DNA of 64,000 nucleotides from Escherichia coli (GCA_005400705.1 GCA_005400705.1_4079.1); one strand, 5' to 3'. Shown: positions 12,594 to 64,000, counted from the first letter of the stretch. Program-made: numbers and translations. The notes: generated from the sequence alone by a model not told the origin.

Positions 12594-13424
12594 ATGTCAT
12601 TAGAAAAAATAATCATTTCTGAATTCCGAAAGTATATCATGGATTGTGATAGAGATGTACAGCGTAAGTTCAATGAGTACCTTGACAAATATCCGTATTT
12701 GATGTTTAATCCGTTTGAAACTGATGATGATTTATATCTTGGTTTTTACATAGGATTTACTCAACGAATTCTTCATAAAGATGAAATGAAACAATCTGAG
12801 ATTTGGGTAGAAACTGACTCATCAGAGTCTAATGTTTTTTATCTTTATACATATTATGCCGAAATTGTTAGAGATACGACACCTGATGGTTGTCTATTTG
12901 TACAATCTTCTGATATTGAAAGAATATATATCGAACCTGTATCTTTAGATATGGTTGCACAGCTTCCAACTATCCAACAGTTAGATGCAGACGAATTAAC
13001 TTATTCTGTATTTGAATATCTAGGTAGAGATGATTTAACTCAAGAAATTGATAAAATGGTTTCTAAATATACTTCATCACTTATTTCGAATGGTAAACTT
13101 AAATTAGAATTAATTTTTGAAGATACTAGTATTAATCCAGTAAGAGGGGTTACAATTGGAAAAGTTACCATACGTGTTGTTTACGATAATGAAGTACTAG
13201 GATATATTTCAAAACGTGGACATGATTTATGTATAATTAGTACATTCGTTATTTCTCGTAAAAAATGGAATGATTTAATGCAAAAAATCGTGGACGGTAG
13301 TAAAATTCGTGATATAATATGTAATGACATGGTAATTATTAATCCTGATGTTGACTGTGATGTATATTTTCCAGTTCCTGGATTTACACGAGAAAACTTT
13401 AGTAAATTGAAGGATACGAAATGA
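12594..13424 (+). CDS. hypothetical protein
   Basis: ATG after GAGGA (track ORF begins at a TTG at 12588). Confidence 0.55.
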   Translation: MSLEKIIISEFRKYIMDCDRDVQRKFNEYLDKYPYLMFNPFETDDDLYLGFYIGFTQRILHKDEMKQSEIWVETDSSESNVFYLYTYYAEIVRDTTPDGCLFVQSSDIERIYIEPVSLDMVAQLPTIQQLDADELTYSVFEYLGRDDLTQEIDKMVSKYTSSLISNGKLKLELIFEDTSINPVRGVTIGKVTIRVVYDNEVLGYISKRGHDLCIISTFVISRKKWNDLMQKIVDGSKIRDIICNDMVIINPDVDCDVYFPVPGFTRENFSKLKDTK

Positions 13425-14272: not shown

Positions 14273-14301
14273 TTGGACAAGAACGGATATTGTGATATAA
14301 T
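14273..14301 (+). promoter_or_regulatory. sigma70-like promoter with extended -10
   Basis: TTGGAC - 17 nt - TGTGATATAAT. Confidence 0.5.
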
Positions 14302-17768: not shown

Positions 17769-17945
17769 ATGACACATGAAGAATGGTTAGATGAACTAAA
17801 ATTCAAACATAATCCTTTTGGTTTTGGTATACGCCAAGGTCATTATGATGTGTTAAAAGATAAACAACTTTTCAAATCATTTGTACTTGATGCGGATAGC
17901 AACCACTGGTTCATCTATGAGCTTGCAATTAGAGACAAAAAATAG
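17769..17945 (+). CDS. small protein, MTHEEW family
   Basis: MTHEEWLDELKFKHNPFGFGIRQGHYDVLKD...NHWFIYELAIRDKK; paralog of 18287-18469. Confidence 0.5.
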   Translation: MTHEEWLDELKFKHNPFGFGIRQGHYDVLKDKQLFKSFVLDADSNHWFIYELAIRDKK

Positions 17946-17950
17946 TAAGA

Positions 17951-18049
<99 letters not shown>

Positions 18050-18702: not shown

Positions 18703-18782
18703 CAAATGTTTTTGAAAAAACCAGAAAATGAATGATTTTTTTTTGGGACAACTCAAAAATATATGATATAATAATTAGTACA

Positions 18783-19315: not shown

Positions 19316-19729
<414 letters not shown>

Positions 19730-19786: not shown

Positions 19787-19824
<38 letters not shown>

Positions 19825-20187: not shown

Positions 20188-20577
<390 letters not shown>

Positions 20578-21459: not shown

Positions 21460-21750
<291 letters not shown>

Positions 21751-21751
21751 T

Positions 21752-21844
<93 letters not shown>

Positions 21845-32731: not shown

Positions 32732-33153
32732 GAGGTTATAATAAGATTTGTATTTTTGTATTTTTAGTTTGTGCATTCAATTCGTTTGGTTACTACTGTA
32801 CAGAAAATAATATTTCATATGGTTTAAATCCTTTGTGGTTTACAATTTCTAATGTAGCACAAATTGGTATTGCTCTTATGTCTGCACTTATGTTCTGTCC
32901 AATTGTCACTATGGATACTGATCATGAAAGGCTTGGATTTCTCCGTGATACTGGAGACGAACCTTACAGTAGATTGATTGTGTTGTATCCATTTATTGTT
33001 ATTTTAGGTACTAACATCCAACTTGGGTCATTATCTAATAGTGTTACATCAGCAGCTATTGCTATATTTGCATTCACATTTTTTATGGTACACAAATCAG
33101 TACTTAATTGGTATATCACAAAAATGGCAGAAGAAGGTACTAAAAATACTTGA
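32728..33153 (+). CDS. multi-TM membrane protein (hypothetical)
   Basis: Several hydrophobic segments; ATGA overlap. Confidence 0.5.
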   Translation: MRGYNKICIFVFLVCAFNSFGYYCTENNISYGLNPLWFTISNVAQIGIALMSALMFCPIVTMDTDHERLGFLRDTGDEPYSRLIVLYPFIVILGTNIQLGSLSNSVTSAAIAIFAFTFFMVHKSVLNWYITKMAEEGTKNT

Positions 33154-33178
33154 CATAATTTAGTATGTTATATATAAT
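33150..33178 (+). promoter_or_regulatory. sigma70-like promoter
   Basis: TTGACA - 17 nt - TATAAT. Confidence 0.55.
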
Positions 33179-33212
33179 TATTTTGTTAAAAACAAATTAG
33201 AGTAAGGAACTT

Positions 33213-33464
33213 ATGAACATCGATAAGGTCAAAGAACTTAGTGCTGCACTAATTAAGAATGAAGAAGTTTGTGAAGAACTTCGCAGTACTATCAAAGTTG
33301 AGTACGCACGACTCCAAGGTATGCTTCAAGAATCAGAATGGGTAGTAACTAAATCTATCGAAGCAATCTATAAGGATATCGAATCCCTTTTCAACAAGAA
33401 AAGTAAGATTGAATCTGATTCATATAACAAACGTAAAGAGTTATCTACTGCACTTGGTATCTAA
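33213..33464 (+). CDS. hypothetical protein
   Basis: SD AAGGAA. Confidence 0.5.
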   Translation: MNIDKVKELSAALIKNEEVCEELRSTIKVEYARLQGMLQESEWVVTKSIEAIYKDIESLFNKKSKIESDSYNKRKELSTALGI

Positions 33465-33470
33465 AAGTAT

Positions 33471-33499
33471 TTGACATAACAAATAATATGGAGTACAAT
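33471..33499 (+). promoter_or_regulatory. sigma70-like promoter
   Basis: TTGACA - 17 nt - TACAAT. Confidence 0.5.
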
Positions 33500-33538
33500 G
33501 TGCTCCTAATTTAATTATCAGCTAAAAAGGAAAACATT

Positions 33539-33799
33539 ATGAAATCTATTCTCGTTGCAGTTAACCTGGTTGCTTCCCCATCTTTCAACTTCAAACAAGT
33601 TGTTGCTGATAATCTGAAGAAGATCTGTCCAAACGCTGAATTAACTTTCTGTGTGTTTGATTCAGAAAAAGTAACTAAAGTTGATCTAAACTATCTTTTG
33701 AACGAAGTAAAAAGCGTTTCTGGTGAAAGTAACTTAAAAGTTCTTCATGATATTGCTGATGATTATGATGATACACTTGTAATTTCGGAGAAATTCTAA
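33539..33799 (+). CDS. hypothetical protein
   Basis: SD AAAAGGAAA. Confidence 0.5.
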   Translation: MKSILVAVNLVASPSFNFKQVVADNLKKICPNAELTFCVFDSEKVTKVDLNYLLNEVKSVSGESNLKVLHDIADDYDDTLVISEKF

Positions 33800-33804
33800 A
33801 TAAA

Positions 33805-34224
33805 ATGTTTAGATTTCTTCAGTACTTAATCATTAAGTTCTTTGGTTATCATACGATTGAAGGAAAAGCTACACTTGCACATAAAATCTTTGTAGCATTA
33901 TGTACGGGTGATTATGACGTATTGAATAAGTACTGTAAATCGCAAGCATGTATTGATATAATGGCACTTCGTATCTATGAGTGCCAGTTCAATAGATATA
34001 ATTTTTACCAGTACAGATTTGATAAAGAAGAATTTGATAGCATCAAAATGCTAAAGAATTTATGTAACAATAAAAAGAATATGCATATATCAGAATTTGT
34101 TGCTTTGTATTTTTATTTAAAAAGTTCATTGTATATGAACACGATGCAAAGATTCGATACTAGAATTAATGTATTCACCGATAAAGAATTTTATATATAC
34201 GATAAATTCTTAGATAAGGTTTAA
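33805..34224 (+). CDS. hypothetical protein
   Basis: 139 aa ORF. Confidence 0.5.
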   Translation: MFRFLQYLIIKFFGYHTIEGKATLAHKIFVALCTGDYDVLNKYCKSQACIDIMALRIYECQFNRYNFYQYRFDKEEFDSIKMLKNLCNNKKNMHISEFVALYFYLKSSLYMNTMQRFDTRINVFTDKEFYIYDKFLDKV

Positions 34225-34225
34225 T

Positions 34226-34723
34226 ATGACAACTGTTTATATTGATAAACGATTAAATTTATTGATTACCGATTCTAGAGTTACGTCAACTATACCACGA
34301 AACTTATTTGGTTTTTTTCCACTAAGACCAAAATATCAATATGGAGTTGTTAATCAAAAAACTTTATATGTACATGACCGTTTATTCAGTGCTAGTGGGG
34401 CAGTAAGTGAAATTGATAAAGTACTGGATTGGTTAATTAATAAAGTACCAGTTATACCTGACAGAAAGTTAAGTTGCCATTGTGTGCTTCTTTCTAAAGA
34501 TTATGTTATTCATATGATTTTAACTAAAGGAAAGTTTATTAAAAAACTTGAATATCTACATGAAGACTACACTTTCTTTATGGGAAGTGGTGGAGAATAC
34601 ATGGTAGATGCTGCTATTCATGAAGAACATACAACTTTATATGATAAAGTGTTTAGTACTTTCATGGATGTGCATAACCATGATTGCTTCACAGATGATA
34701 ATATTAATGTATATCGATTTTGA
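34226..34723 (+). CDS. hypothetical protein
   Basis: 165 aa ORF. Confidence 0.5.
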   Translation: MTTVYIDKRLNLLITDSRVTSTIPRNLFGFFPLRPKYQYGVVNQKTLYVHDRLFSASGAVSEIDKVLDWLINKVPVIPDRKLSCHCVLLSKDYVIHMILTKGKFIKKLEYLHEDYTFFMGSGGEYMVDAAIHEEHTTLYDKVFSTFMDVHNHDCFTDDNINVYRF

Positions 34724-34744
34724 TTTCGTCATTAGGAGATGTAA

Positions 34745-35710
34745 GTGAAAAAGCTTGATTTAAATACAATTGCCGAAGAAGTTCTGGATGAATGTTTTGC
34801 TAATGAAGAAGTCAACACACTAGAAGCCTTAGATTTCGTTGAAGATAAAGATGAAAATGAAGGTAAAGTACAAAGCAGTTTCAAATATAATATTACACTT
34901 AAGCGACCACCAAATGTTTCCAATGAAGATCTAATTCGTGATATTCAAGCTGGTATCAATGTAAAGAAAAACACTGAACTGTTAGTTCGTTACAATTATG
35001 GACTGATTATTGATGTAGCAAGTAAATGTACTTGTTATATCCCATTTGAAGATAAGATTTCATATGGTGTTGAGGGGTTCATGAGAGCACTAAAAACCTT
35101 TGATCTTAATAAGAATGTGAAGTTCATTACCTATGCTTCTTCTAGTATTTACATGACAGTTTATAACGAAAGTTCTGACGCTAACTATATGGTACACTTC
35201 CCACGTTATATGAGTGTTCATAAGATCAAAGTAAAAAGATTCTGCCAGGAATATATGCGTAAACATGGTGTTCGCCCAACTCCTGAAATAATCTCAGAGG
35301 GTACTGGGATTGAGATTCAGCATGTTAATAATTGTTTGTTATTTCAAAGCGAATACACTTCACTGGATGCACCATTAGACGGTGTTACAGATGGTACACT
35401 AGGTGACATTATTCATTCACCTGCTTCTGATTTTAACCTCAATGTTGATAGTATTCGTGCACCTTTACGTTATGCTATCAATGAACTGACTAACGAATTG
35501 AGTACTAAAGAACGTGAGATTATCCAGCGTGTTCATGGTCTAGGTGAATATGAACCTGAAACGCTTCGTGAGATTGCTGATAATGGTTTTGTTGATGATA
35601 ATGGAAAATATGTTAAATCCCGTTCATCAATACACCGAAAGTACAGTGAAGCTATGCAAAAGCTTAAGAAGCTAGTACTTGCAAAAGGGTACGAATACGA
35701 AGATTTCTAA
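34745..35710 (+). CDS. sigma70-family RNA polymerase sigma factor
   Basis: GTG start after AGGAG; region 2 (EGFMRALKTFDLNKNVKFITYASSSIYMTV) and region 4 helix-turn-helix (LSTKEREIIQRVHGL...ETLREIAD...KSRSSIHRKYSEAMQKLKK). Confidence 0.75.
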   Translation: MKKLDLNTIAEEVLDECFANEEVNTLEALDFVEDKDENEGKVQSSFKYNITLKRPPNVSNEDLIRDIQAGINVKKNTELLVRYNYGLIIDVASKCTCYIPFEDKISYGVEGFMRALKTFDLNKNVKFITYASSSIYMTVYNESSDANYMVHFPRYMSVHKIKVKRFCQEYMRKHGVRPTPEIISEGTGIEIQHVNNCLLFQSEYTSLDAPLDGVTDGTLGDIIHSPASDFNLNVDSIRAPLRYAINELTNELSTKEREIIQRVHGLGEYEPETLREIADNGFVDDNGKYVKSRSSIHRKYSEAMQKLKKLVLAKGYEYEDF

Positions 35711-35717
35711 AGAAAAA

Positions 35718-35743
35718 GGGTTGGCTTATGCCAACCTTTTTTT
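35718..35743 (+). terminator. intrinsic terminator
   Basis: GGTTGGC-TTAT-GCCAACC hairpin followed by a T7 run. Confidence 0.65.
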
Positions 35744-35749
35744 ATGGGA

Positions 35750-36360
35750 TGAAGTAAAAGTTTGTGATATAATTATCTTGTACAATTCTGTTGGCATGAT
35801 ATTCATGTACCTGATCCACTCGAAAACGTAGAGGGCAGTTGAGCAGTCCGACAGTGCGAACAGCAAAAGAAACCCGTTAGATGTGGGCATAGTTTGAACC
35901 CCTCACGGCAATGCGGCTGTATAAAGAACCACGTTAGGATAGCTGGTGGTTCCTTGATAGACATATAAGGATAACACCTTACGAATTATCTAAGGGAGAG
36001 TTATCAAATTTTGTACAGGAAAGTTGCGTCCAGAATTTGAGTACTCACATTAAGTATTTGATTGCATAGATACTTAATGAAGATACACTATGTTTAAAAG
36101 TGTAGACCGTCATATGAAACTGAAGTAGAGAGAAACAGGATGACCCGCTTTCGCACTCGTTATGAGTAATCTTCAATGCAATAGCTCTGATACCATCAGC
36201 GTCAAATTTCCCTCCTTGTGGGGGGGAAGAAAAATCCCTTCCTCAAATCCCGTCAATATTAAAAGTCCTTGACAGTTATTAATCATTCGCGTAGAATACG
36301 TAGTATTAGAAGCGAACAGACATCTCTTCGAGATGGATGATTAACCATTAAGGAATATCA
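35750..36360 (+). ncRNA. candidate structured non-coding RNA (unclassified)
   Basis: About 610 bp with no ORF of 60 aa or more on either strand in an otherwise saturated genome; locally GC-richer; extended -10-like TGTGATATAAT at 35763-35773. Confidence 0.3.
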
Positions 36361-36361
36361 A

Positions 36362-36571
36362 ATGAATTCAGTAATCTTTTTAGTAGTCGCTTTCTCTGTT
36401 AATTCCGGTGTACAAATTACCCCAATGAACTCAATGAACCAATGTTTTTCTGTACGTGACAGTACTTATGATCAAGTAAACCACATGTCACTTATGACAG
36501 TTAGTAAAGAAAGTATGTGGTGTTACAATAGTAATACTAACACAAAGCTTATTGTAGGACAAACTCAATGA
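36362..36571 (+). CDS. hypothetical protein
   Basis: SD AAGGAA. Confidence 0.5.
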   Translation: MNSVIFLVVAFSVNSGVQITPMNSMNQCFSVRDSTYDQVNHMSLMTVSKESMWCYNSNTNTKLIVGQTQ

Positions 36572-36798
36572 GTTATGGTGTTCGTTTTGAGATTCGTTCT
36601 ATTGTCATCAATGCAGAGAAACAAGTATCGTTGGATGGTGATATACGTGAAATTTATCTATCATGTATCCGTGCGAAATCTGAAGCAGATGCCTTAGTAC
36701 AAATGTATAGTTTTAACTTTTCAAATGGATTCTATTTGGTACGAGTTGTTGAAGTTAAAAAAGTAATTCTTGGTTGTTGCATAGAAGGAATAATGTAA
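36568..36798 (+). CDS. hypothetical protein
   Basis: ATGA overlap. Confidence 0.5.
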   Translation: MSYGVRFEIRSIVINAEKQVSLDGDIREIYLSCIRAKSEADALVQMYSFNFSNGFYLVRVVEVKKVILGCCIEGIM

Positions 36799-37587
36799 AT
36801 GAGCACTATCGATGAACTGATTCAACGGAATTCAAAATATTACCAACCATCAGAAATTGTGGATAACATTACTAAATCTGAGTTTGGACCGAACACACGC
36901 AAACTCATTCATGTAATGTCACGTGATGGCTTTAAATGTGATTGTTGTGGTGAATCAAATGTAGTATTCACTTTACACAAGCACAGTACTAAAGAACGTT
37001 ATAAATTCAGACCTTATGTACTTAAAGGGAAACGTCTTGTACGCATGACGTTAGACCATAACGTACTGGACTGTCTTCAGGGCGGTAATGATAAAGAGAA
37101 CATGACTGCACTGTGTGAAGATTGTAACGCATTACGCCAGCATAAGTTTGCTGAATACAGTGAGTTTAAACACTGGTATCATAACGCGGATCGTTCAATC
37201 GAGCCTGACGTTAACTACTGCTTCATTGAGTACATTAAGAATGCAAAAGATACATACATTCTTAAATCAATGTCACCTATTACCGTGTTTCCTGAGAACC
37301 TATTCACTACATTAAAGAATAGTTTTATTGTAGGTGATATTGATGCATTCAAGTATTTTGACAAAGGTGCAAAACATTTTGAAATTCAATGTCTTAGTAC
37401 TGCACTATGTGAACTCATTAAAATTTACATAAAAGAGTGTTTGGGTATTGACAATGTACGTGTACCAGAGTATACTTTTTCTATTGAATTCGATTGTGAA
37501 TCAATCAAAGAGTTTGGAATTCTTTTCAATAAACAAATAGAACTTGCAATTCAAAACGAAATCAAGTACTATACTACTAACATTTAA
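36799..37587 (+). CDS. HNH-motif endonuclease-like protein
   Basis: FKCDCCGE ... LDHNVLDCLQGGNDKENMTALCEDCNALRQHK resembles the HNH signature. Confidence 0.55.
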   Translation: MSTIDELIQRNSKYYQPSEIVDNITKSEFGPNTRKLIHVMSRDGFKCDCCGESNVVFTLHKHSTKERYKFRPYVLKGKRLVRMTLDHNVLDCLQGGNDKENMTALCEDCNALRQHKFAEYSEFKHWYHNADRSIEPDVNYCFIEYIKNAKDTYILKSMSPITVFPENLFTTLKNSFIVGDIDAFKYFDKGAKHFEIQCLSTALCELIKIYIKECLGIDNVRVPEYTFSIEFDCESIKEFGILFNKQIELAIQNEIKYYTTNI

Positions 37588-37602
37588 TCAGAGGAAATTA
37601 TC

Positions 37603-38091: not shown

Positions 38092-38119
38092 CTTGACAGA
38101 AGATATCAGTACTGTATAA
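38092..38119 (+). promoter_or_regulatory. sigma70-like promoter with extended -10
   Basis: TTGACA-GAAGATATCAGTACTG-TATAAT. Confidence 0.6.
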
Positions 38120-38165
38120 TGTTTATATCAAACGAAATCCACTTTAACAAATGATAGGAAATATT

Positions 38166-42187: not shown

Positions 42188-42417
42188 TACTAAGTTTTGT
42201 TGTTGCACTATTGTTTATGTTTTATCCTACACTAGTAGCATTAGCCACTAAACGACCGATTGTAGATATCACTACTGTATTCTTGCTAAACGTGGCATTA
42301 GTACTGGTTTCTATTATCATTCCCGTGAGCTTTACTGTTATTGATATTGTGTCGGTATTACTCTTCGTAATCAGTTATCTTATGCTTATTGAAGAAAAAC
42401 CAGTTGACAACCATTAG
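42178..42417 (+). CDS. small membrane protein (hypothetical)
   Basis: Two TM segments. Confidence 0.45.
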   Translation: MYLVLSFVVALLFMFYPTLVALATKRPIVDITTVFLLNVALVLVSIIIPVSFTVIDIVSVLLFVISYLMLIEEKPVDNH

Positions 42418-42431
42418 TAGTACTGTATAAT
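42404..42431 (+). promoter_or_regulatory. sigma70-like promoter with extended -10
   Basis: TTGACA-ACCATTAGTAGTACTG-TATAAT. Confidence 0.55.
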
Positions 42432-43988: not shown

Positions 43989-44180
43989 ATGTTGATTTAT
44001 CAAAGTGAAAATATTCGTGTTATGCAGCATCCCTACTTACAAATCTTTGATGTGCAGCAGTATATGGAAGGTGATGACCCAAGAACCTATGGTCGTAAGT
44101 ATGATTACTTCACTGTAAAGCAGTGTAAAAATATTAACGAAGTACGACAATTAGTTCAAGAACTTCAAAACAAAGGTTGA
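43989..44180 (+). CDS. hypothetical protein
   Basis: ATG after AAGGA (track ORF 43935-44180). Confidence 0.45.
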   Translation: MLIYQSENIRVMQHPYLQIFDVQQYMEGDDPRTYGRKYDYFTVKQCKNINEVRQLVQELQNKG

Positions 44181-44198
44181 CTTCGGTCAGCCTTTTTT
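44175..44198 (+). terminator. terminator hairpin GGTTGAC-TTCG-GTCAGCC (repeat family) overlapping a -35 box
   Basis: 7 bp stem with UUCG loop and T6 run; TTGACT inside the stem is 18 nt upstream of TATAAT. Confidence 0.6.
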
Positions 44199-44234
44199 GT
44201 TATAATTCTCTTAATAAATTAGAGGATTTTAATT

Positions 44235-46909: not shown

Positions 46910-47024
46910 TTTAACTTTGGGACAACCATTCTTATTATGATATAATGTTTTATGTCATTCGATATAAATGACAACGGAACTATAAATATTATAGTAAAAT
47001 TTATCTCTTATAGGAGTTATAAAA

Positions 47025-47415: not shown

Positions 47416-47440
47416 GGGTTGACTAAGGTCAGCCCTTTGT
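47416..47440 (+). terminator. terminator hairpin (GGTTGAC repeat family variant)
   Basis: GGGTTGAC-TAAG-GTCAGCCC followed by TTTGTTG. Confidence 0.5.
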
Positions 47441-47477
47441 TGTATCATAACTTCTCAATATAACTGAGGTATCATAT

Positions 47478-47599: not shown

Positions 47600-47624
47600 G
47601 GTTGACTTCGGTCAGCCTTTTCTT
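47600..47624 (+). terminator. terminator hairpin GGTTGAC-TTCG-GTCAGCC (repeat family)
   Basis: Identical stem-loop to 44175, followed by TTTTCTTT. Confidence 0.6.
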
Positions 47625-47654
47625 TATACTATAAATATAGTCATAGAGAAAAAA

Positions 47655-50027: not shown

Positions 50028-50051
50028 GGTTGACTTCGGTCAGCCTTTTTT
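50028..50051 (+). terminator. terminator hairpin GGTTGAC-TTCG-GTCAGCC (repeat family)
   Basis: Stem-loop followed by a T6 run, then -10-like TATGAT. Confidence 0.6.
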
Positions 50052-50087
50052 GTTATGATGTTGATATTAACTACAGAGGATAAAGTA

Positions 50088-52756: not shown

Positions 52757-52784
52757 TTGACAAACACATTCAGTACTGTATAAT
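52757..52784 (+). promoter_or_regulatory. sigma70-like promoter with extended -10
   Basis: TTGACA-AACACATTCAGTACTG-TATAAT. Confidence 0.6.
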
Positions 52785-54952: not shown

Positions 54953-54976
54953 GGGTTGACTTAGGTCGGCCCTTTT
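54953..54976 (+). terminator. terminator hairpin (GGTTGAC repeat family variant)
   Basis: GGGTTGAC-TTAG-GTCGGCCC followed by TTTT, then -10-like TATTAT. Confidence 0.55.
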
Positions 54977-55012
54977 GCTATTATATCTATATCGAAACGA
55001 AGGAGACAAACC

Positions 55013-58335: not shown

Positions 58336-58998
58336 ATGATGAAATCAAAATTAGGTTTGTTTTATAAAAACTATTTTGTTAAACAACGTAAATTTATAAA
58401 AAAATATTTCTCTGGTGAGAAGTCTAGTCCTATAATTTTTAAAAGACCAAGTTATAATACTTACTTAGCTTGTGCTAAACAGTCTAAGAAATTTATTACT
58501 CTTTTAAATAAAAACAAAATTAAAGCTTCTTATGTTGAAACGAGAAGAAACTCATCAATAACTCCTGGTGATTTTATTGAGTACGGATGTTTCAATATTA
58601 AGTATAATGATAATACATACTTTATGGATATTGATTGTAATACATCCAATCTTTTTAACATTGTAGTAAATCCATTAAAACAATATAATGTTTATGGTGA
58701 TTCTATTATCAAATTAATCAAAAACAAAGATGGCTTTGATTTTGAAATAAATGTTTTAGATGATAATTTTGACGAAGTACCCGTAAACCCTGAAATCTGT
58801 GATATTTTAAACAGTTTAAAAGGTAGTACCTACAATATATCATCTGATTTAATGTTTCAGTACTCATTAATCCATAAAGATATTGAAAAGTATATTGAAT
58901 GCTCCAGAATTTTGAATTTTCTCTATGATGAATTTAAAAAGAGTTCTAAAATAACTGCATACACTTTGTACAATATTCCTAAAATGGTGAATCTTTAA
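58336..58998 (+). CDS. hypothetical protein, divergent member of EExFFQxS family
   Basis: SD AAGGAG; motif variant SSDLMFQYSLIHKDIEKYIE; last plus-strand gene before the minus-strand block. Confidence 0.5.
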   Translation: MMKSKLGLFYKNYFVKQRKFIKKYFSGEKSSPIIFKRPSYNTYLACAKQSKKFITLLNKNKIKASYVETRRNSSITPGDFIEYGCFNIKYNDNTYFMDIDCNTSNLFNIVVNPLKQYNVYGDSIIKLIKNKDGFDFEINVLDDNFDEVPVNPEICDILNSLKGSTYNISSDLMFQYSLIHKDIEKYIECSRILNFLYDEFKKSSKITAYTLYNIPKMVNL

Positions 58999-59402
58999 CA
59001 AATACAGTACTGGCAACTCCACCGTCTGTAATATATTGTCCAGTACTGTAAATTTGTATACCATCGGTTAAGTAAGTTCTGTATAAAGTTGCTGTAACAT
59101 ATACGTTATTCATATTCATCTCTATTGGTAGTACACATTTGGTATAGGCCGACACATCTGTTTGTGTACCTATACCCAATTGACCTGCGTTATCGCCTGT
59201 GTTATTACCAGTTGCGTAAACACCCAATGAAGTTATAATATGATTAGAAAAATATGAATAACCCAAACTCTTGAGATTCTCTACTGTACAACGTACCATC
59301 TGACATAAGGGCAAAAACTGTTGTATCAGATGAAGCTATTTTTGTTACAGAAGGTTGTATGTTCTGTTTTGATGATGTGATAATTCTTCGAAAGGGTAGC
59401 AT
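58979..59402 (-). pseudogene. frameshifted, internally deleted copy of the RCC1-like repeat gene family
   Basis: Minus-strand ATG at 59402 after GGAGGA gives MLPFRRIIT... which stops after about 52 codons; the +1 frame continues as track ORF 58979-59314 whose C-terminus (AGQLGIGTQTDV...YRTYLTD...YSTGQ) matches the C-termini of the full-length paralogs. Confidence 0.45.
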
Positions 59403-59494
59403 TGTATCCTCCAAATGTAAATCATTATTATATTTAGGACAAAAAAATGCCAGTACAAGGCACTGGCATAAAATCTAAGCAGAAGGCATATCCT

Positions 59495-59605
59495 TCATCT
59501 TAATAAATGAAAATTGTGTACCAGTATTTGTGGTTCCAATTTCTTTATTTCAGGAAGAGTTGGTTTAATATTTCCGTACTTGACCATTCTTGCAAAAGGT
59601 AACAT
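59495..59605 (-). pseudogene. N-terminal fragment (36 codons) of an RCC1-like repeat gene paralog
   Basis: GGAGGGAATT-ATG then MLPFARMVKYGNIKPTLPEI... ending at a stop; carries the family promoter/SD context. Confidence 0.4.
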
Positions 59606-59678
59606 AATTCCCTCCTTTTATTTGTTATACTATATTTAATACAAATAAGAAAGCCAGTATCAAGTACTGGCTTTTACA

Positions 59679-60869
59679 TTACAATTGTCTAGGTGTATCC
59701 AGTACATATCTATTTGTACGAGGACCACCATCATCATCAGTTCCGGTTGAATATATATTTTTCATATCAGCAGTTAGGAAAGTACGATACGAACCGCGAT
59801 ATATTTTTATTTTATCATACATAGAATATGTTATTTCTGACGGCAATGGACATGCAGTAAATTTACCAATGGTAACATCAGAACCAACACCCAATGTGCC
59901 AGCATAACTACTCGCATTTAAACCAGTTGCATATACACCTGCACTCGTAACTAGTATACTAGATTGTGTTGGGTATCCAGTATGAATTGAATACAAAGTA
60001 CCGGGTGGTAAGGTTGTACTATTGTTTCCTAAAACTCCATTAACAGTGCTAGATGTAGTTTTATTTCCCCATGCTCCATTATTAGCTAATCCACCAACTA
60101 GAAACTGACGTGCTCCTGTATTTGGATTCTCCACTAAAGCACTGACTGAACCCATTGAGCATACAGTGTATTGTAACGTTTTTGTGTATGTTGTACTTGG
60201 CTGATATAAAGTATATTCATTATATAAAGTCCATGTAGTGCTGGAACTTATACCGGATGTACCACCACCAATATATAAATTATTTTGTGTATCAAAAAAC
60301 ATTGCACAGCTATTTGTTGACATTATTTGTGCAATATCAACATCTGGTGTTACAGCTTTAACAAATGAACCATCGGTTATTTGTTGAGTTTTTCCAGTAC
60401 CATCAGCGAATTGTTTAGCCCCACTCCAACCAGTACTCCATATTGTATTATTATCCATTAAGAAAGTAAACCACGTAGTACCTGCATACATCTGTTTAAT
60501 TGAAGTACTTGAACTTTGTGTGAACAAATTTTCAATATATTGGTTATAACTTAAAAATGATGTAGTACTAGTTTCTAAACCAATATGACTACCATATCCA
60601 CAATAAAAATAATTTAAGTCATTATCTTGTACTAACAAAGTTCCTTCTGACATCCAACAATCGTTAACGTTTTCTCTAATTAATGTCCATGTTCTTAATG
60701 CAGTGTTGTTTCCTCTCCCAAACTTCCCAAAACTATTATTGCCTCGTGCGTATAGTTGACCATCAGTATAAAGTACAACAACATCACTATTGATTGGTAT
60801 TATTTTCTTAATTTGAAGAGGCTCAGGTGTAATATTTCCATAATCAAACATTCTAACAAAAGGTAACAT
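59679..60869 (-). CDS. RCC1-like repeat protein with conserved MLPFVRMFDYGNI N-terminus
   Basis: Start set to the ATG after AAGGAGGAAAT (track ORF extends 22 codons further into the upstream repeat); repeated G-x-N-x-x-G-x-x-G motifs (YARGNNSFGKFGRGN, YATGLNASSYAGTLGVG). Confidence 0.6.
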   Translation of the reverse strand: MLPFVRMFDYGNITPEPLQIKKIIPINSDVVVLYTDGQLYARGNNSFGKFGRGNNTALRTWTLIRENVNDCWMSEGTLLVQDNDLNYFYCGYGSHIGLETSTTSFLSYNQYIENLFTQSSSTSIKQMYAGTTWFTFLMDNNTIWSTGWSGAKQFADGTGKTQQITDGSFVKAVTPDVDIAQIMSTNSCAMFFDTQNNLYIGGGTSGISSSTTWTLYNEYTLYQPSTTYTKTLQYTVCSMGSVSALVENPNTGARQFLVGGLANNGAWGNKTTSSTVNGVLGNNSTTLPPGTLYSIHTGYPTQSSILVTSAGVYATGLNASSYAGTLGVGSDVTIGKFTACPLPSEITYSMYDKIKIYRGSYRTFLTADMKNIYSTGTDDDGGPRTNRYVLDTPRQL

Positions 60870-60939
60870 ATTTCCTCCTTTATTCATTATACTATATTTA
60901 ATACAAAAAGAAATGCCAGTATCAAGTACTGGCATAATA

Positions 60940-62118
60940 TTATCGGTTAAATTTAAAATCTGTTATGTGTGTCCATGTATGATTTAATGGTGTACTCATT
61001 GGTGTAAAGCCAGCAGGGTCTGACAAAGCTGTACCACGTGCGTACATAAATTGATTGCCAGTACAATCCATTATAGCATAAGAACGTGTTGCTGTGCCAC
61101 ATTTGAACCCAACTGCACTACTTGGGGTCGGTAATACTTCAAATGTAGGTGCATTTGAACTACCACCCCCATCTTTTGTTCCAGCTATGTACAGAACTCC
61201 ATTAGTATCAATGATTAAGTTAGTCCAATATGCTTGTTCTCGACCAGCATAAAAATATGTTAAATCACCGGGTACAAATGGTAACGTTCCTTTATATATT
61301 GTGGTATTAACATTCACTGGTGCACCAGCTACACCCCATGAACTCATATAGTTTCTCCCACTTGCGTAGAATGTAGTTCCTTTACCGTAAAGTATTAATG
61401 TTGCTTGACTTGTTCGCATTGCATTATATTCAAACTCAGGATCATCAGTAGCGTCCTTAAAAATCTGTGTCCATGTTGTTATATTGCCAGTAGTTGTAAC
61501 ACCCATTTGATAATAATAATTATCACCAGTAGCATAGAATTCTTTAGGGCCAGTTTGTACAATTGCATTCCCATTAGTTAACCAAAAATCTAATGTATTA
61601 GTCTTGATCTTGGTTGGTGTGTAATTCGCCACGGTATTTCCTTTTCCGAAATAACCATTAGCGTTATTTCCATGACCCCATAAATCACCATTAGTTGTGC
61701 GTAGGAATAATGTACCAGTATTGAATCCAACTTTTTCTATAGTACTTATGTCAATACCAACAGCAGTGTACTTCGTTGTAAAATCTTGAAAAGTACTCCA
61801 ATAATTTGATGAACCATTAAACATGGTTTGTCTGCCAGTGTACTTCACTTTATTATCGTTAGTGATAAGTAATGTCCCCCACACTGACGCGAACATTAAC
61901 TTAACATTTTCCATAACAAAGTATGGCTTACCGTATGCTGACGCGGTAGTGTTTAAACCTAATAGTTGTCCATCATTACTACAACCCCATACTTCGCCGT
62001 TATCCAAAAGCATCAACATAGTAGGTTTGCCAGATGATACATCCAAAAAGAAATCTTTTGGTGTTGGTACACCAGGTGTGATATTCCCATAATCAAACAA
62101 TCTTACAAAAGGTAACAT
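60940..62118 (-). CDS. RCC1-like repeat protein with conserved MLPFVRLFDYGNI N-terminus
   Basis: AAGGAGGGAAAT-ATG; motifs WGHGNNANGYFGKGN, YATGDNYYYQMGV. Confidence 0.6.
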   Translation of the reverse strand: MLPFVRLFDYGNITPGVPTPKDFFLDVSSGKPTMLMLLDNGEVWGCSNDGQLLGLNTTASAYGKPYFVMENVKLMFASVWGTLLITNDNKVKYTGRQTMFNGSSNYWSTFQDFTTKYTAVGIDISTIEKVGFNTGTLFLRTTNGDLWGHGNNANGYFGKGNTVANYTPTKIKTNTLDFWLTNGNAIVQTGPKEFYATGDNYYYQMGVTTTGNITTWTQIFKDATDDPEFEYNAMRTSQATLILYGKGTTFYASGRNYMSSWGVAGAPVNVNTTIYKGTLPFVPGDLTYFYAGREQAYWTNLIIDTNGVLYIAGTKDGGGSSNAPTFEVLPTPSSAVGFKCGTATRSYAIMDCTGNQFMYARGTALSDPAGFTPMSTPLNHTWTHITDFKFNR

Positions 62119-62189
62119 ATTTCCCTCCTTTATTCATTATACTATATTTAATACAAATAAGAATGCCAGTATCAAGTACTGGCATTATG

Positions 62190-63299
62190 TTATTTTGGTA
62201 AATCAATTTTAGTAAAGACTGCAACATCTTCACTTGCTCCTGGTATTGCGTAATAAGAACCAGTACTATACACATCTCCATTTTTGGTTAATATCGATGT
62301 CAAACCATCACTAAAAAGAACATCCCTAATCTCACTAACTTCAACTGGTAATTGTAAATTGGTAGCACTATATATAGCACCAGTTTGAGAATTGTTTAAT
62401 CCCAAACCACGGTTCGCCCCAACACCCTTCTGATATGTACTAGTAATTACCATTTGTGTAGCAGTATTTAAGGCAGGTGAATTCGTCATAAACAACGGAG
62501 AACTATTAGGCAAAGTACTTACAGGAACGGCACGGAATGTAGTCGTACCTGAACTAAGAAAGTTTGGAGTTTGACCACATACGAAATATGATGTACCATT
62601 ATAGTAATTGAATGCATTACCACCAATGGCTGCATCGATTACACCAGAACTACGCAATCCCCAAGTGTTAATTTGTGTTTGGTTCCCCGTACCATGCTGT
62701 CCACTACTATTCCATCCAGAACTATATAGCTTATTATCTAATGTAAGATACATACTATCATTCGCATTGGTCATTACTTTACGAACGTTCGTAGCACATT
62801 GAGTTAATGTGTAAATTGATGAGGAACCAATACCCAAAGAACCACGATATCCATTATCTCCTGCACCATAGAGTACTGAATTAGTGCTAAGTACAAATAT
62901 TAAACCATTTGTACATACAATATTAGCAATTTCACTTACTGGTATAGCATTGGTAAACCAATTAGTCCTTTCAACTAATACAGTACTGTAAGAAGTAGTT
63001 GTAGAAGATGAGAACCAGTACGTTTGACCTGATGTCCATATCGTATTATCATTTTTAATAATAACAAGTGTACGATCACCCACGAAAAAATTAGAAACAT
63101 CTGTACTTACTAATATCCATGAAGATACCGTGTTGGTATTACCATTTCCAGATTCACCACCTTGATTTCTACCTATGTAATATAAATCATGTGAATCAGT
63201 CAATAAGAATTGACCTTGTGTAGAAGCACCAACTTTAATTATATTTTTAGGACCAGGTACAATATTTCCGTACTTAACCATTCTTGCAAAAGGTAACAT
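62190..63299 (-). CDS. RCC1-like repeat protein with conserved MLPFARMVKYGNI N-terminus
   Basis: AAGGAGAGAATT-ATG; motifs YYIGRNQGGESGNGN, YGAGDNGYRGSLGIG, YSSGWNSSGQHGTGN. Confidence 0.6.
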   Translation of the reverse strand: MLPFARMVKYGNIVPGPKNIIKVGASTQGQFLLTDSHDLYYIGRNQGGESGNGNTNTVSSWILVSTDVSNFFVGDRTLVIIKNDNTIWTSGQTYWFSSSTTTSYSTVLVERTNWFTNAIPVSEIANIVCTNGLIFVLSTNSVLYGAGDNGYRGSLGIGSSSIYTLTQCATNVRKVMTNANDSMYLTLDNKLYSSGWNSSGQHGTGNQTQINTWGLRSSGVIDAAIGGNAFNYYNGTSYFVCGQTPNFLSSGTTTFRAVPVSTLPNSSPLFMTNSPALNTATQMVITSTYQKGVGANRGLGLNNSQTGAIYSATNLQLPVEVSEIRDVLFSDGLTSILTKNGDVYSTGSYYAIPGASEDVAVFTKIDLPK

Positions 63300-63309
63300 A
63301 ATTCTCTCC

Positions 63310-64000
63310 TTAATTTAATAATGCCCCTGGCAAATCCACTTTGACGAATTGTGCATATGCTGAGGAATTTTGATCAAAGTTTGGTCCCAATCCATAAAAT
63401 GAGCTAATGCCGTCTTCATTTGTGTATATGATATAAACGTTCTTTACATCATTTCCGCATATAAATCGAATGTCTTTCGTTTGTGTTCCCGCTGGAACAT
63501 TACGAAGGTTCACAACGCCATTACTTGCATTGTTATCAGCCGACGCAATTGGTAATTGATTTTGACCATATTGACCACGCATATTTTTTGCATCTAAACC
63601 AAACACAGTATTTGATACCGCACCAACTTTCAAAAATGAACCAAAACTATTATTGAATGACTTTGGAAATGTACCACTATAAACACTTCTCCCATCTGAT
63701 AATACCGCTGAACTGAATTTCCCGTTATTCGATATGGCAAATTCATTGTAAGGAAGTGTACCCATTTTGGTATATACAGAATATGAATTAGTGGAAGTAT
63801 TATCAATAATCTTATTACCATTATATCCAATACCATACTGGTATCCGTCTGCATCTTGAACTATACACAAAGGACCACTTGGGGTTTGTGTCAACGAAAC
63901 AACACGTTCAACTTGTATATCACCAAATGTATTTCTTCGCCATGTTCTATCTATTATAGTACTAGTATTACCCAAAGATAATTCCACACTATATAATAGA
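63310..64000 (-). CDS. repeat protein, 5' end beyond the window (partial); probable further paralog
   Basis: Open minus-strand frame runs to the window edge with no upstream stop; contains YGIGYNGNKIIDN and GLGPNFDQNS. Confidence 0.5.
   Translation of the reverse strand, partial: LLYSVELSLGNTSTIIDRTWRRNTFGDIQVERVVSLTQTPSGPLCIVQDADGYQYGIGYNGNKIIDNTSTNSYSVYTKMGTLPYNEFAISNNGKFSSAVLSDGRSVYSGTFPKSFNNSFGSFLKVGAVSNTVFGLDAKNMRGQYGQNQLPIASADNNASNGVVNLRNVPAGTQTKDIRFICGNDVKNVYIIYTNEDGISSFYGLGPNFDQNSSAYAQFVKVDLPGALLN

Follow-up and report, generated by a model that had tools for sequence, protein, structure and literature searches.

Which promoters does a sigma factor read when a bacteriophage encodes it among promoters that closely resemble those of its host? 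The question arises from a 64,000-nucleotide (nt) stretch of DNA deposited under Escherichia coli (GCA_005400705.1; hereafter the window), in which an open reading frame (ORF) on the plus strand, at 34745..35710, encodes a sigma factor of 321 amino acids. A preliminary description of the window had set this protein beside near-consensus, partly extended sigma70 promoters, implying that the one might serve the other, and had asked whether an AGTACTG element in the spacer takes part in recognition. Judged by sequence similarity, the window derives from an Asteriusvirus, a jumbo coliphage of the 121Q/PBECO4 type: a comparison of bases 33000-37600 with phage records gives 41 matches, the best of which are 98% identical over the full length, and the closest phages (SHEFM2K, 121Q, phAPEC6, slurp01, G17 and PBECO4) are all Escherichia phages of this genus with genomes of about 350 kb. 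The evidence points away from the near-consensus promoters and suggests a second promoter class, here called class M, as the possible target of the phage sigma.

The ORF belongs to the sigma70 family, in agreement with the preliminary description. Among the models used (Pfam PF04542/PF04539/PF04545 and NCBIfam TIGR02937), Sigma70_r3 scores above its cut-off (2e-9; 37.8 against 25.3 bits), Sigma70_r2 and Sigma70_r4 fall just under theirs (23.0 against 24.0 and 23.8 against 24.1 bits), and the superfamily model TIGR02937 is the sole NCBIfam model passed (44.7 against 42.9). The protein matches PHROG 351, 'RNA polymerase sigma factor', at 2.6e-60, and a sequence search of the PDB returns RpoD, SigB, SigA and RpoS chains, with RpoD best at 5e-17. 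The AlphaFold (AF2) model built from 27 homologues contains sigma2 (about residues 50-146), sigma3 (154-200) and sigma4 (240-313) with predicted local distance difference test (pLDDT) values of 80-89, preceded by 49 acidic N-terminal residues that are predicted to be disordered. When this model is compared with the PDB by Foldseek, sigmaS and sigmaA chains rank first with a probability of 1.0.

Placement among the established groups gives a different picture. The best model specific to group 1 (RpoD), RpoD_Cterm TIGR02393, reaches 88 bits against a cut-off of 354, and Pfam yields no PF03979 or PF00140 match for regions 1.1 and 1.2. The group 3 models (FliA/WhiG, SigB/F/G) score equally far below threshold (TIGR02479, 55 against 190; TIGR02980, 56 against 234), and the presence of regions 3 and 4 sets the ORF apart from the short, region-2-only T4 gp55 type. 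Close sequence relationship and a common signature place it instead in the clade of RaK2-like sigmas. Searching 1.84 billion cluster representatives, in which this clade amounts to about 18 clusters at 50% identity, we found 15 that match at E <= 1e-30; relaxing the threshold to E <= 1e-28 brings the number to 18, and the next score is 6e-20, where ordinary cellular sigmas start. The signature comprises the loss of the Trp dyad, Tyr at sigma70 positions 440 and 455, a hairpin insertion and Arg at 589. Full-length orthologues are detected by tblastn against phage genomes in every RaK2-like lineage, with identities of 99% in Asteriusvirus, 73% in A4, 57-60% in TH47-like phages, 44% in RaK2, 37% in Salmonella SE_PL, 35% in BF/CBB-like phages and 31% in Xanthomonas XaC1. 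The gene is the one known from group 2 jumbo phages as an RpoD-like sigma (121Q gp167, PBECO4, phAPEC6, G17_00146, RaK2_00244, GAP32_490, CBB_513, Serratia BF gp413); its product shares 99-100% of its residues with the Asteriusvirus proteins and 31-60% with the proteins from other genera, and the RaK2-like sigmas have in common a location inside an early block of small genes. Both the gene, annotated in GenBank, and the occurrence of sigma70-like early promoters, described in the CBB/GAP32 literature, are thus already known.

Alignments with E. coli sigma70, with conservation counted over 21 clade representatives, reveal a sharp division between the positions that are kept and those that are replaced. 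The window sigma has in common with sigma70 and sigmaS the sigma2-sigma3-sigma4 fold, region 3.2, the core-binding residues and the Y430/F427/T429/N383 pocket. N383, L386, D403, F419, F427, T429 and Y430 are kept, as is the LGD of region 3.2; the seven residues cover core binding through region 2.1/2.2 and the -11A/-7T pocket, and N84, D103, F127, T129 and Y130 of the phage protein are invariant or nearly so in the clade. By contrast, the residues with which group 1 and 2 sigmas read TTGACA, TGn and TATAAT are almost all different. The melting dyad W433/W434 is replaced by two serines (Trp in 0 of 21 representatives), the -12 readers Q437 and T440 by Met and Tyr, and the TG readers H455 and E458 by Tyr and Val, the Tyr at 440 and at 455 each being present in 17 of 21. 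Y425, R436 and R441 are changed to Val, Tyr and Asn. In region 4.2, the -35 readers E585, R588 and Q589 become Ser, His and Arg (Arg in 20 of 21) and R586 becomes Ser; R584 is kept, solely in the Asteriusvirus-like sigmas.

Region 4.2 is also altered in its architecture. The FDVT of sigma70 (580-583) is replaced by GFVDDNGKYVKS (281-292), with a net insertion of 8 residues, and the AF2 model folds this segment into a beta-hairpin (pLDDT 84-89) between the first helix of the helix-turn-helix (HTH; 274-280) and the recognition helix (293-313, with the sequence SRSSIHRKY). Compared with sigma70 and sigmaS, the window sigma combines the missing region 1.1/1.2 match and Trp dyad with an HTH split by a hairpin. 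Because the -10, TG and -35 readers are nearly all replaced and a hairpin is inserted, the phage sigma is unlikely to read TTGACA/TATAAT promoters, and the implied link between the two is not supported. Loss of the DNA-binding residues of regions 2.4 and 4.2, which the preliminary description had named as the finding that would overturn it, is largely observed as far as sigma70-like specificity is concerned; the replacement residues are nonetheless conserved within the clade, which argues for an altered specificity and against a loss of DNA binding.

The near-consensus promoters themselves (class E) are real. The window contains 11 perfect TTGACA-N16-18-TATAAT promoters on the plus strand and none on the minus strand, against a mean of 0.1 in Markov-3 simulations; with at most one mismatch the counts are 31, 1 and 2.4, and a consensus scanner agrees with them for 31-39 kb. 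The repeated extended form reported earlier is also borne out, the 29-mer TTGACTAAATAGTTCAGTACTGATATAAT being present exactly at 19796..19824 and with one mismatch at 21460..21488 (both on the plus strand; 0 expected), the latter 11 nt ahead of a tRNA-Ser/Met/Asn cluster at 21499-21837; a copy with a 16-nt spacer is found at 19317, and relatives at 20568, 20859, 38093, 42404 and 52757. Four promoters (19317, 19796, 20568 and 21460) stand directly ahead of tRNA genes. The class as a whole is best explained as early promoters of host sigma70, whose consensus it fits.

The sigma gene is itself part of this early programme. It starts with GTG, 5 nt after a Shine-Dalgarno sequence AGGAGA (34734..34739, plus strand), and closes an operon of four genes at 33539-35710. 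A perfect sigma70-type promoter, TTGACA-N17-TATAAT, lies at 33150..33178 upstream of the block, and TTGACA-N17-TACAAT (11/12) at 33471..33499 is the promoter closest to the operon, both on the plus strand. An intrinsic terminator, GGTTGGCTTATGCCAACC followed by T7 (35719..35744, plus strand), lies directly 3' of the stop codon and is annotated in G17 too. Since these two promoters precede the four-gene unit and a hairpin with T7 follows it, the sigma gene is an early gene.

Two further observations concern repeated promoter modules. About 18 near-identical modules, AAAAAGTACTTGCAA-N16-TATAATGTTTTACATC, each ahead of a tiny gene, are found at 121Q 137000-155000, and the GTATAATGTTTATATC promoters of the window resemble this highly repeated family of early promoters. 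In addition, a cassette consisting of TTGACTTCGGTCAGCC, a T-run and TATAAT recurs at 44177-44206, 47419-47448, 47602-47630, 50030-50059 and 54956-54984; its -35 hexamer appears inside a short GAC-TTCG-GTC hairpin and the T-run forms the promoter spacer, so that it looks like a fused terminator/promoter module.

A second promoter class emerges when all nnGACn hexamers located 15-18 nt upstream of TAYAAT are tabulated over the window and 121Q 1-50 kb and 118-348.5 kb, the sequence scanned for promoter classes. The hexamers fall into two discrete groups. One consists of 38 TTGACA sites with spacers of 16-17 nt, 32 of them without TGn, and the other of GGGACA (13), GAGACA/G (9), TGGACA/G (5) and AGGACA (1), almost all with a 16-nt spacer and TGn. 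The extended -10, described at first as a general feature of the near-consensus promoters, is in fact present in only 6 of 39 class E promoters genome-wide and marks the other class, where 23 of 26 possess it (Fisher p = 4e-9). The strict form of class M, [GTA][GA]GAC[AG]-N13-TGn-TAYAAT, occurs 23 times on the plus strand and not at all on the minus strand, against 0.1 in simulations; the class can be summarized as (G/T)RGACAA-N14-TGnTAYAAT. Members in the window, all on the plus strand, are TGGACG-N13-TGA-TATAAT at 13291..13318, TGGACA-N13-TGA-TATAAT at 14274..14301 and GGGACA-N13-TGA-TATAAT at 46919..46946, each ahead of a small gene, and a second GGGACA-N13-TGA-TATAAT at 18745..18772, 11 nt ahead of tRNA-Ser (18783). 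A class-M-like GAGACA-N17-TATAAT without TGn (17932..17960, plus strand) lies 13 nt ahead of tRNA-Gly (17973).

The genes behind class M include those of replication and of the late sigma. Class M promoters lie upstream of SSB (two in tandem), primase, exonuclease, topoisomerase II and the gp609/DNA polymerase unit, and also upstream of ClpP-like and ClpA-like proteases, a nudix hydrolase and several genes of unknown function. One of them, GGGACAAaatgctttttggTGCTATAAT at 121Q 321900, precedes gp591, the gene of a T4 gp55-like late sigma. In two places of 121Q (192743-193357 and 326601-327345) a strong class M promoter points into a gap without annotation, about 600 nt long in the first case and 740 nt in the second, where small genes or RNAs may have escaped annotation. 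Structural genes are preceded by an excess of the late-type motif ATAAATA (27 upstream matches against 0.5 expected), and a search for enriched k-mers ahead of genes, covering every genome region, returned only early, middle-like and late (TATAAATA) promoters together with Shine-Dalgarno words.

For CBB and GAP32 a published prediction distinguishes the same three classes, namely RpoD-like promoters within the early block to which the sigma gene belongs, 'divergent' promoters with TGAAACG, and promoters of the T4-late-like type (PMC5259590). The 'divergent RpoD-like' promoters (TGAAACG ... TATA) have the architecture of class M and occupy orthologous positions, for example upstream of topoisomerase II and exonuclease; their box is GAAAC(A/G), compared with GRGACA in Asteriusvirus, and the CBB motif TGAAACG-N10-22-TATA accordingly has 0 matches in the window. 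What the present analysis adds to that description is the strictness of the 16-nt spacing, the signature TGn and a link between the box and the recognition helix of the sigma.

That link comes from the comparison of genera. The box at the -35 position is constant within a genome and differs by genus, as does the recognition helix of the phage sigma: Asteriusvirus (121Q and the window) pairs GRGACA with KSRSSIHRKY, TH47 pairs GAGACA/AGGACA with TARSSLHRKY, the RaK2-like phages pair TGAACA with TVRGTLHYKF, and the two genera of GAP32 and BF/pEa49 pair GAAAC(A/G) with (T/S)SKATLSRRY. Box positions 1-3 vary, and the last three, ACA, are common to all lineages. The hosts of the compared lineages are all enterobacteria, in which region 4.2 of sigma70 should be essentially alike; for this reason the shifts of the box are not explained by a host reader and are more readily explained by a phage reader that evolves with it.

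From this co-variation we infer the assignment of the phage sigma to class M, and we give about an even chance to a cascade of three sigmas, passing from host sigma70 to the phage sigma and on to the gp55-like sigma. According to this scheme, host sigma70 holoenzyme would read the consensus TTGACA/TATAAT promoters at the start of infection, and the phage sigma would be made early, from its operon behind near-consensus promoters. The sigma, predicted from its conserved core-binding positions to bind host core RNA polymerase, would then take the polymerase to class M, the altered -35 box being read by the re-tooled region 4.2. Class M would turn on the replication genes, proteases, tRNAs and the gene of the gp55-like late sigma (gp591), which in turn would serve the late TATAAATA promoters.

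Comparable arrangements exist in other phages. SPO1 gp28 (a Bacillus phage) and phiEco32 gp36 take the place of the primary sigma of the host in the transcription of middle or late genes, and the logic proposed here is alike, a phage sigma made early redirecting the core polymerase of the host to promoters peculiar to the phage; their promoters are unlike the host consensus in both elements, whereas class M retains a host-like -10. The three-tier programme, the late promoters and the gp55-like late sigma (121Q gp591) recall T4. There, however, the MotA box lies at -30, compared with the canonical -35 position (16-nt spacer) of the class M box, and Asteriusvirus possesses a full-length RpoD-like sigma, while tblastn with T4 queries over 121Q outside 50-54.5 kb detected no MotA or AsiA.

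The AGTACTG element, proposed at first as a possible part of the recognition by the phage sigma, turns out to belong to a far more widespread signal. The palindrome AGTACT occurs 183 times in the window (for example at 19332, 38108, 42419 and 52772) against 21.7 expected from base composition, and 717 times against 95 in the rest of 121Q. Comparable excesses are seen in the loci of TH47 (79 against 14), RaK2-like (93 against 13.9) and BF-like phages (98 against 14) and in 14.7 kb of the Xanthomonas phage XaC1 (70 against 5); the 42-kb GAP32 locus contains 101 copies. All RaK2-like genera examined thus display an 8- to 14-fold over-representation, with about 900 copies per genome, and of the longer, preferred form CAGTACTG the window contains 41 copies where 0.6 would be expected. 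The copies are mostly intragenic and lie in all three reading frames, with 204, 55 and 101 per frame compared with 63, 6.5 and 27 after a synonymous-codon shuffle that holds protein sequences and codon usage fixed. Beyond C(-1) and G(+1) the flanks are at background frequencies. Retention of individual sites between orthologous positions is about double that of hexamers of the same composition (64% against 33% in TH47, 39% against 16% in RaK2-like and 37% against 16% in BF-like phages), and the sites are densest in the early regions, with 4-5.7 per kb over 121Q 118-158 kb, and peak just past stop codons.

AGTACT is therefore a palindrome selected throughout the clade and, because its 8-fold excess is genome-wide, mostly intragenic and found in every RaK2-like genus examined, it is not a sigma- or promoter-specific signal. 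A subclass of early promoters has nevertheless incorporated it. AGTACTG is fixed against the -10, within a 16-nt spacer, in 18 early promoters, 11 of them at 121Q 135-152 kb and 7 in the window; the latter include TTGACT-N9-AGTACTG-TATAAT at 19317..19344 and perfect promoters at 38093..38120, 42404..42431 and 52757..52784, all on the plus strand and with AGTACTG abutting the -10. AGTACT is also frequent a short way 5' of the -35, in the form AGTACTTGAC or AGTACTTGCAA, and both promoter positions are far commoner than its density predicts. A reasonable guess is that a putative dimeric DNA-binding protein acts as an operator binder on the AGTACTG promoters. The SlmA-binding-site consensus is GTGAGTACTCAC; SlmA as the binder was rejected on account of the 3 copies of GAGTACTC compared with 194 of CAGTACTG and of the enrichment in a Xanthomonas phage. 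The literature searched contained no relevant report on CAGTACTG or AGTACT in jumbo phages. Among other short words, E. coli Chi, GCTGGTGG, occurs 18 times on the plus and 11 times on the minus strand of the 344-kb composite of 121Q and the window, where base composition gives an estimate of about 1 per strand, and among the hexamers of this composite CTGGTG and CACCAG show some of the strongest over-representation.

Several points weigh against assigning class M to the phage sigma. The class has a textbook sigma70 extended -10, TGnTATAAT, which host sigma70 could read unaided, and the phage sigma lacks the residues of sigma70 for TG (H455/E458), for -12 (Q437/T440) and for melting (W433/W434). 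Its region 2.4 varies by genus (IYMTVYNE compared with IRQHMYRN) while the -10 is unchanged, the co-variation of box and helix comprises three independent states only, and the literature searched contained neither a biochemical test of any RaK2-like sigma nor an experiment on any member of the clade. If class M consisted of ordinary extended -10 promoters for host sigma70 alone, the phage sigma would read a small or degenerate set missed by motif searches. Sigma70 indeed reads such -10 elements without a good -35, and the k-mer enrichment gave no further abundant upstream motif. An unimportant -35 would drift, yet 23-26 paralogous promoters all share a fixed nRGACAA, with the spacing held strictly at 16 nt, and the box changes coherently between genera whose hosts share one type of sigma70, and we regard this explanation as unlikely. 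By analogy with the MotA/AsiA appropriation of T4, in whose middle promoters an upstream box peculiar to the phage likewise accompanies a -10 of the sigma70 type or TGn, host sigma70 might instead act on class M with a phage activator bound to nRGACAA, the phage sigma being otherwise employed. AsiA has been reported in some group 2 jumbo phages (PMC7824862), and most early genes of the present phage are of unknown function, so that an unrecognised activator may be present. The box lies where a -35 element is expected and not at -30, a phage-encoded region 4 to read it is already on hand in the sigma, and tblastn with T4 AsiA and MotA queries, over 121Q outside 50-54.5 kb, gave a single weak match at E = 0.055 (gp502), which has no Pfam or PHROG support and is treated as chance. 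The HTH 'transcriptional regulator' adjoining the sigma in GAP32 and CBB was considered as a candidate and rejected, since neither 121Q nor the window contains a homologue. We consider such an activator to be quite improbable.

The two remaining explanations leave class M aside. That the phage sigma reads the early-type promoters with AGTACTG beside the -10, as first suggested, would agree with the fixed position of the element in its 18 promoters, some 100-fold above the genome-wide density at that offset; both elements of these promoters, TTGACA and TATAAT, are consensus and not expected to be read by the replaced residues, many of the promoters are paralogous repeats, and the palindrome itself abounds within genes, all of which makes the suggestion very unlikely. 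It appears just as remote that the protein acts mainly as a competitor for core RNA polymerase in host shut-off, with little promoter specificity. Such a role would account for core-binding positions being conserved when DNA-contact residues are not, and for the absence of the melting dyad; on the other hand, the replaced positions are themselves conserved in the clade (Y140, Y155, R298, Y300 and G287 of the hairpin), and regions 3.2 and 4.2, superfluous for a pure decoy, are retained with a confident fold. The reading in which the phage sigma directs class M is the one that we favor.

The sigma gene has direct counterparts in other Asteriusvirus genomes. Position 34745 corresponds to about 89267 of 121Q, the gene being the orthologue of 121Q gp167 and G17_00146; in G17 the ORF has the same ends, is annotated as 'putative RNA polymerase sigma factor' and lies within a long run of small same-strand genes broken up by predicted terminators. 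Its operon neighbors all fall into PHROGs of unknown function without Pfam matches. The gene directly upstream (34226-34723; 165 amino acids, N-terminus MTTVY...) displays a faint PHROG match to an HslV-family peptidase (1.7e-5), again with no Pfam match.

Just past the sigma terminator, a class-M-like promoter, GGGATG-N13-TGA-TATAAT (35746..35773, plus strand), faces an ORF-free stretch of 590 nt (35774-36361) that reaches 45% GC at 35800-36000, compared with 33% for the genome. The box at the same place is GGGACA in TH47 and TGAACA in RaK2; as a co-variation series over IMG/VR loci this promoter was dropped, being found only in Asteriusvirus and RaK2. The stretch matches no Rfam family, has a fold z-score of -1.46 and, beyond the promoter, displays no sequence conservation relative to TH47, RaK2 or BF; an RNA gene is not claimed. 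At the end of the window, 58800-64000 lies in a minus-strand array of RCC1-like paralogues (compare 121Q 118-131 kb), at which the coordinate offset to 121Q shifts by about 11 kb; the number of repeat copies probably differs between the two phages.

The fullest interpretation joins two proposals: a structurally new sigma, with no Trp dyad and a region 4.2 HTH split by a hairpin, would read GRGACA, TGAACA or GAAACR according to lineage and so provide the middle switch in a cascade of three sigmas, and separately CAGTACTG would be the site of a clade-wide DNA-binding system that marks the genome and gates a subset of early promoters. We put this combination forward tentatively, as a possibility that is rather doubtful in its entirety. 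The AGTACT palindrome is the least expected observation in the window. For a family of 350-kb phages under development for therapy, the analysis provides a testable assignment of promoter classes to sigmas, and the three -35 boxes facing three recognition helices constitute a natural setting for specificity swaps. If the sigma is active, the loss of a near-universal Trp dyad and the insertion in its HTH would be informative for attempts to re-engineer promoter melting and the reading of the -35.

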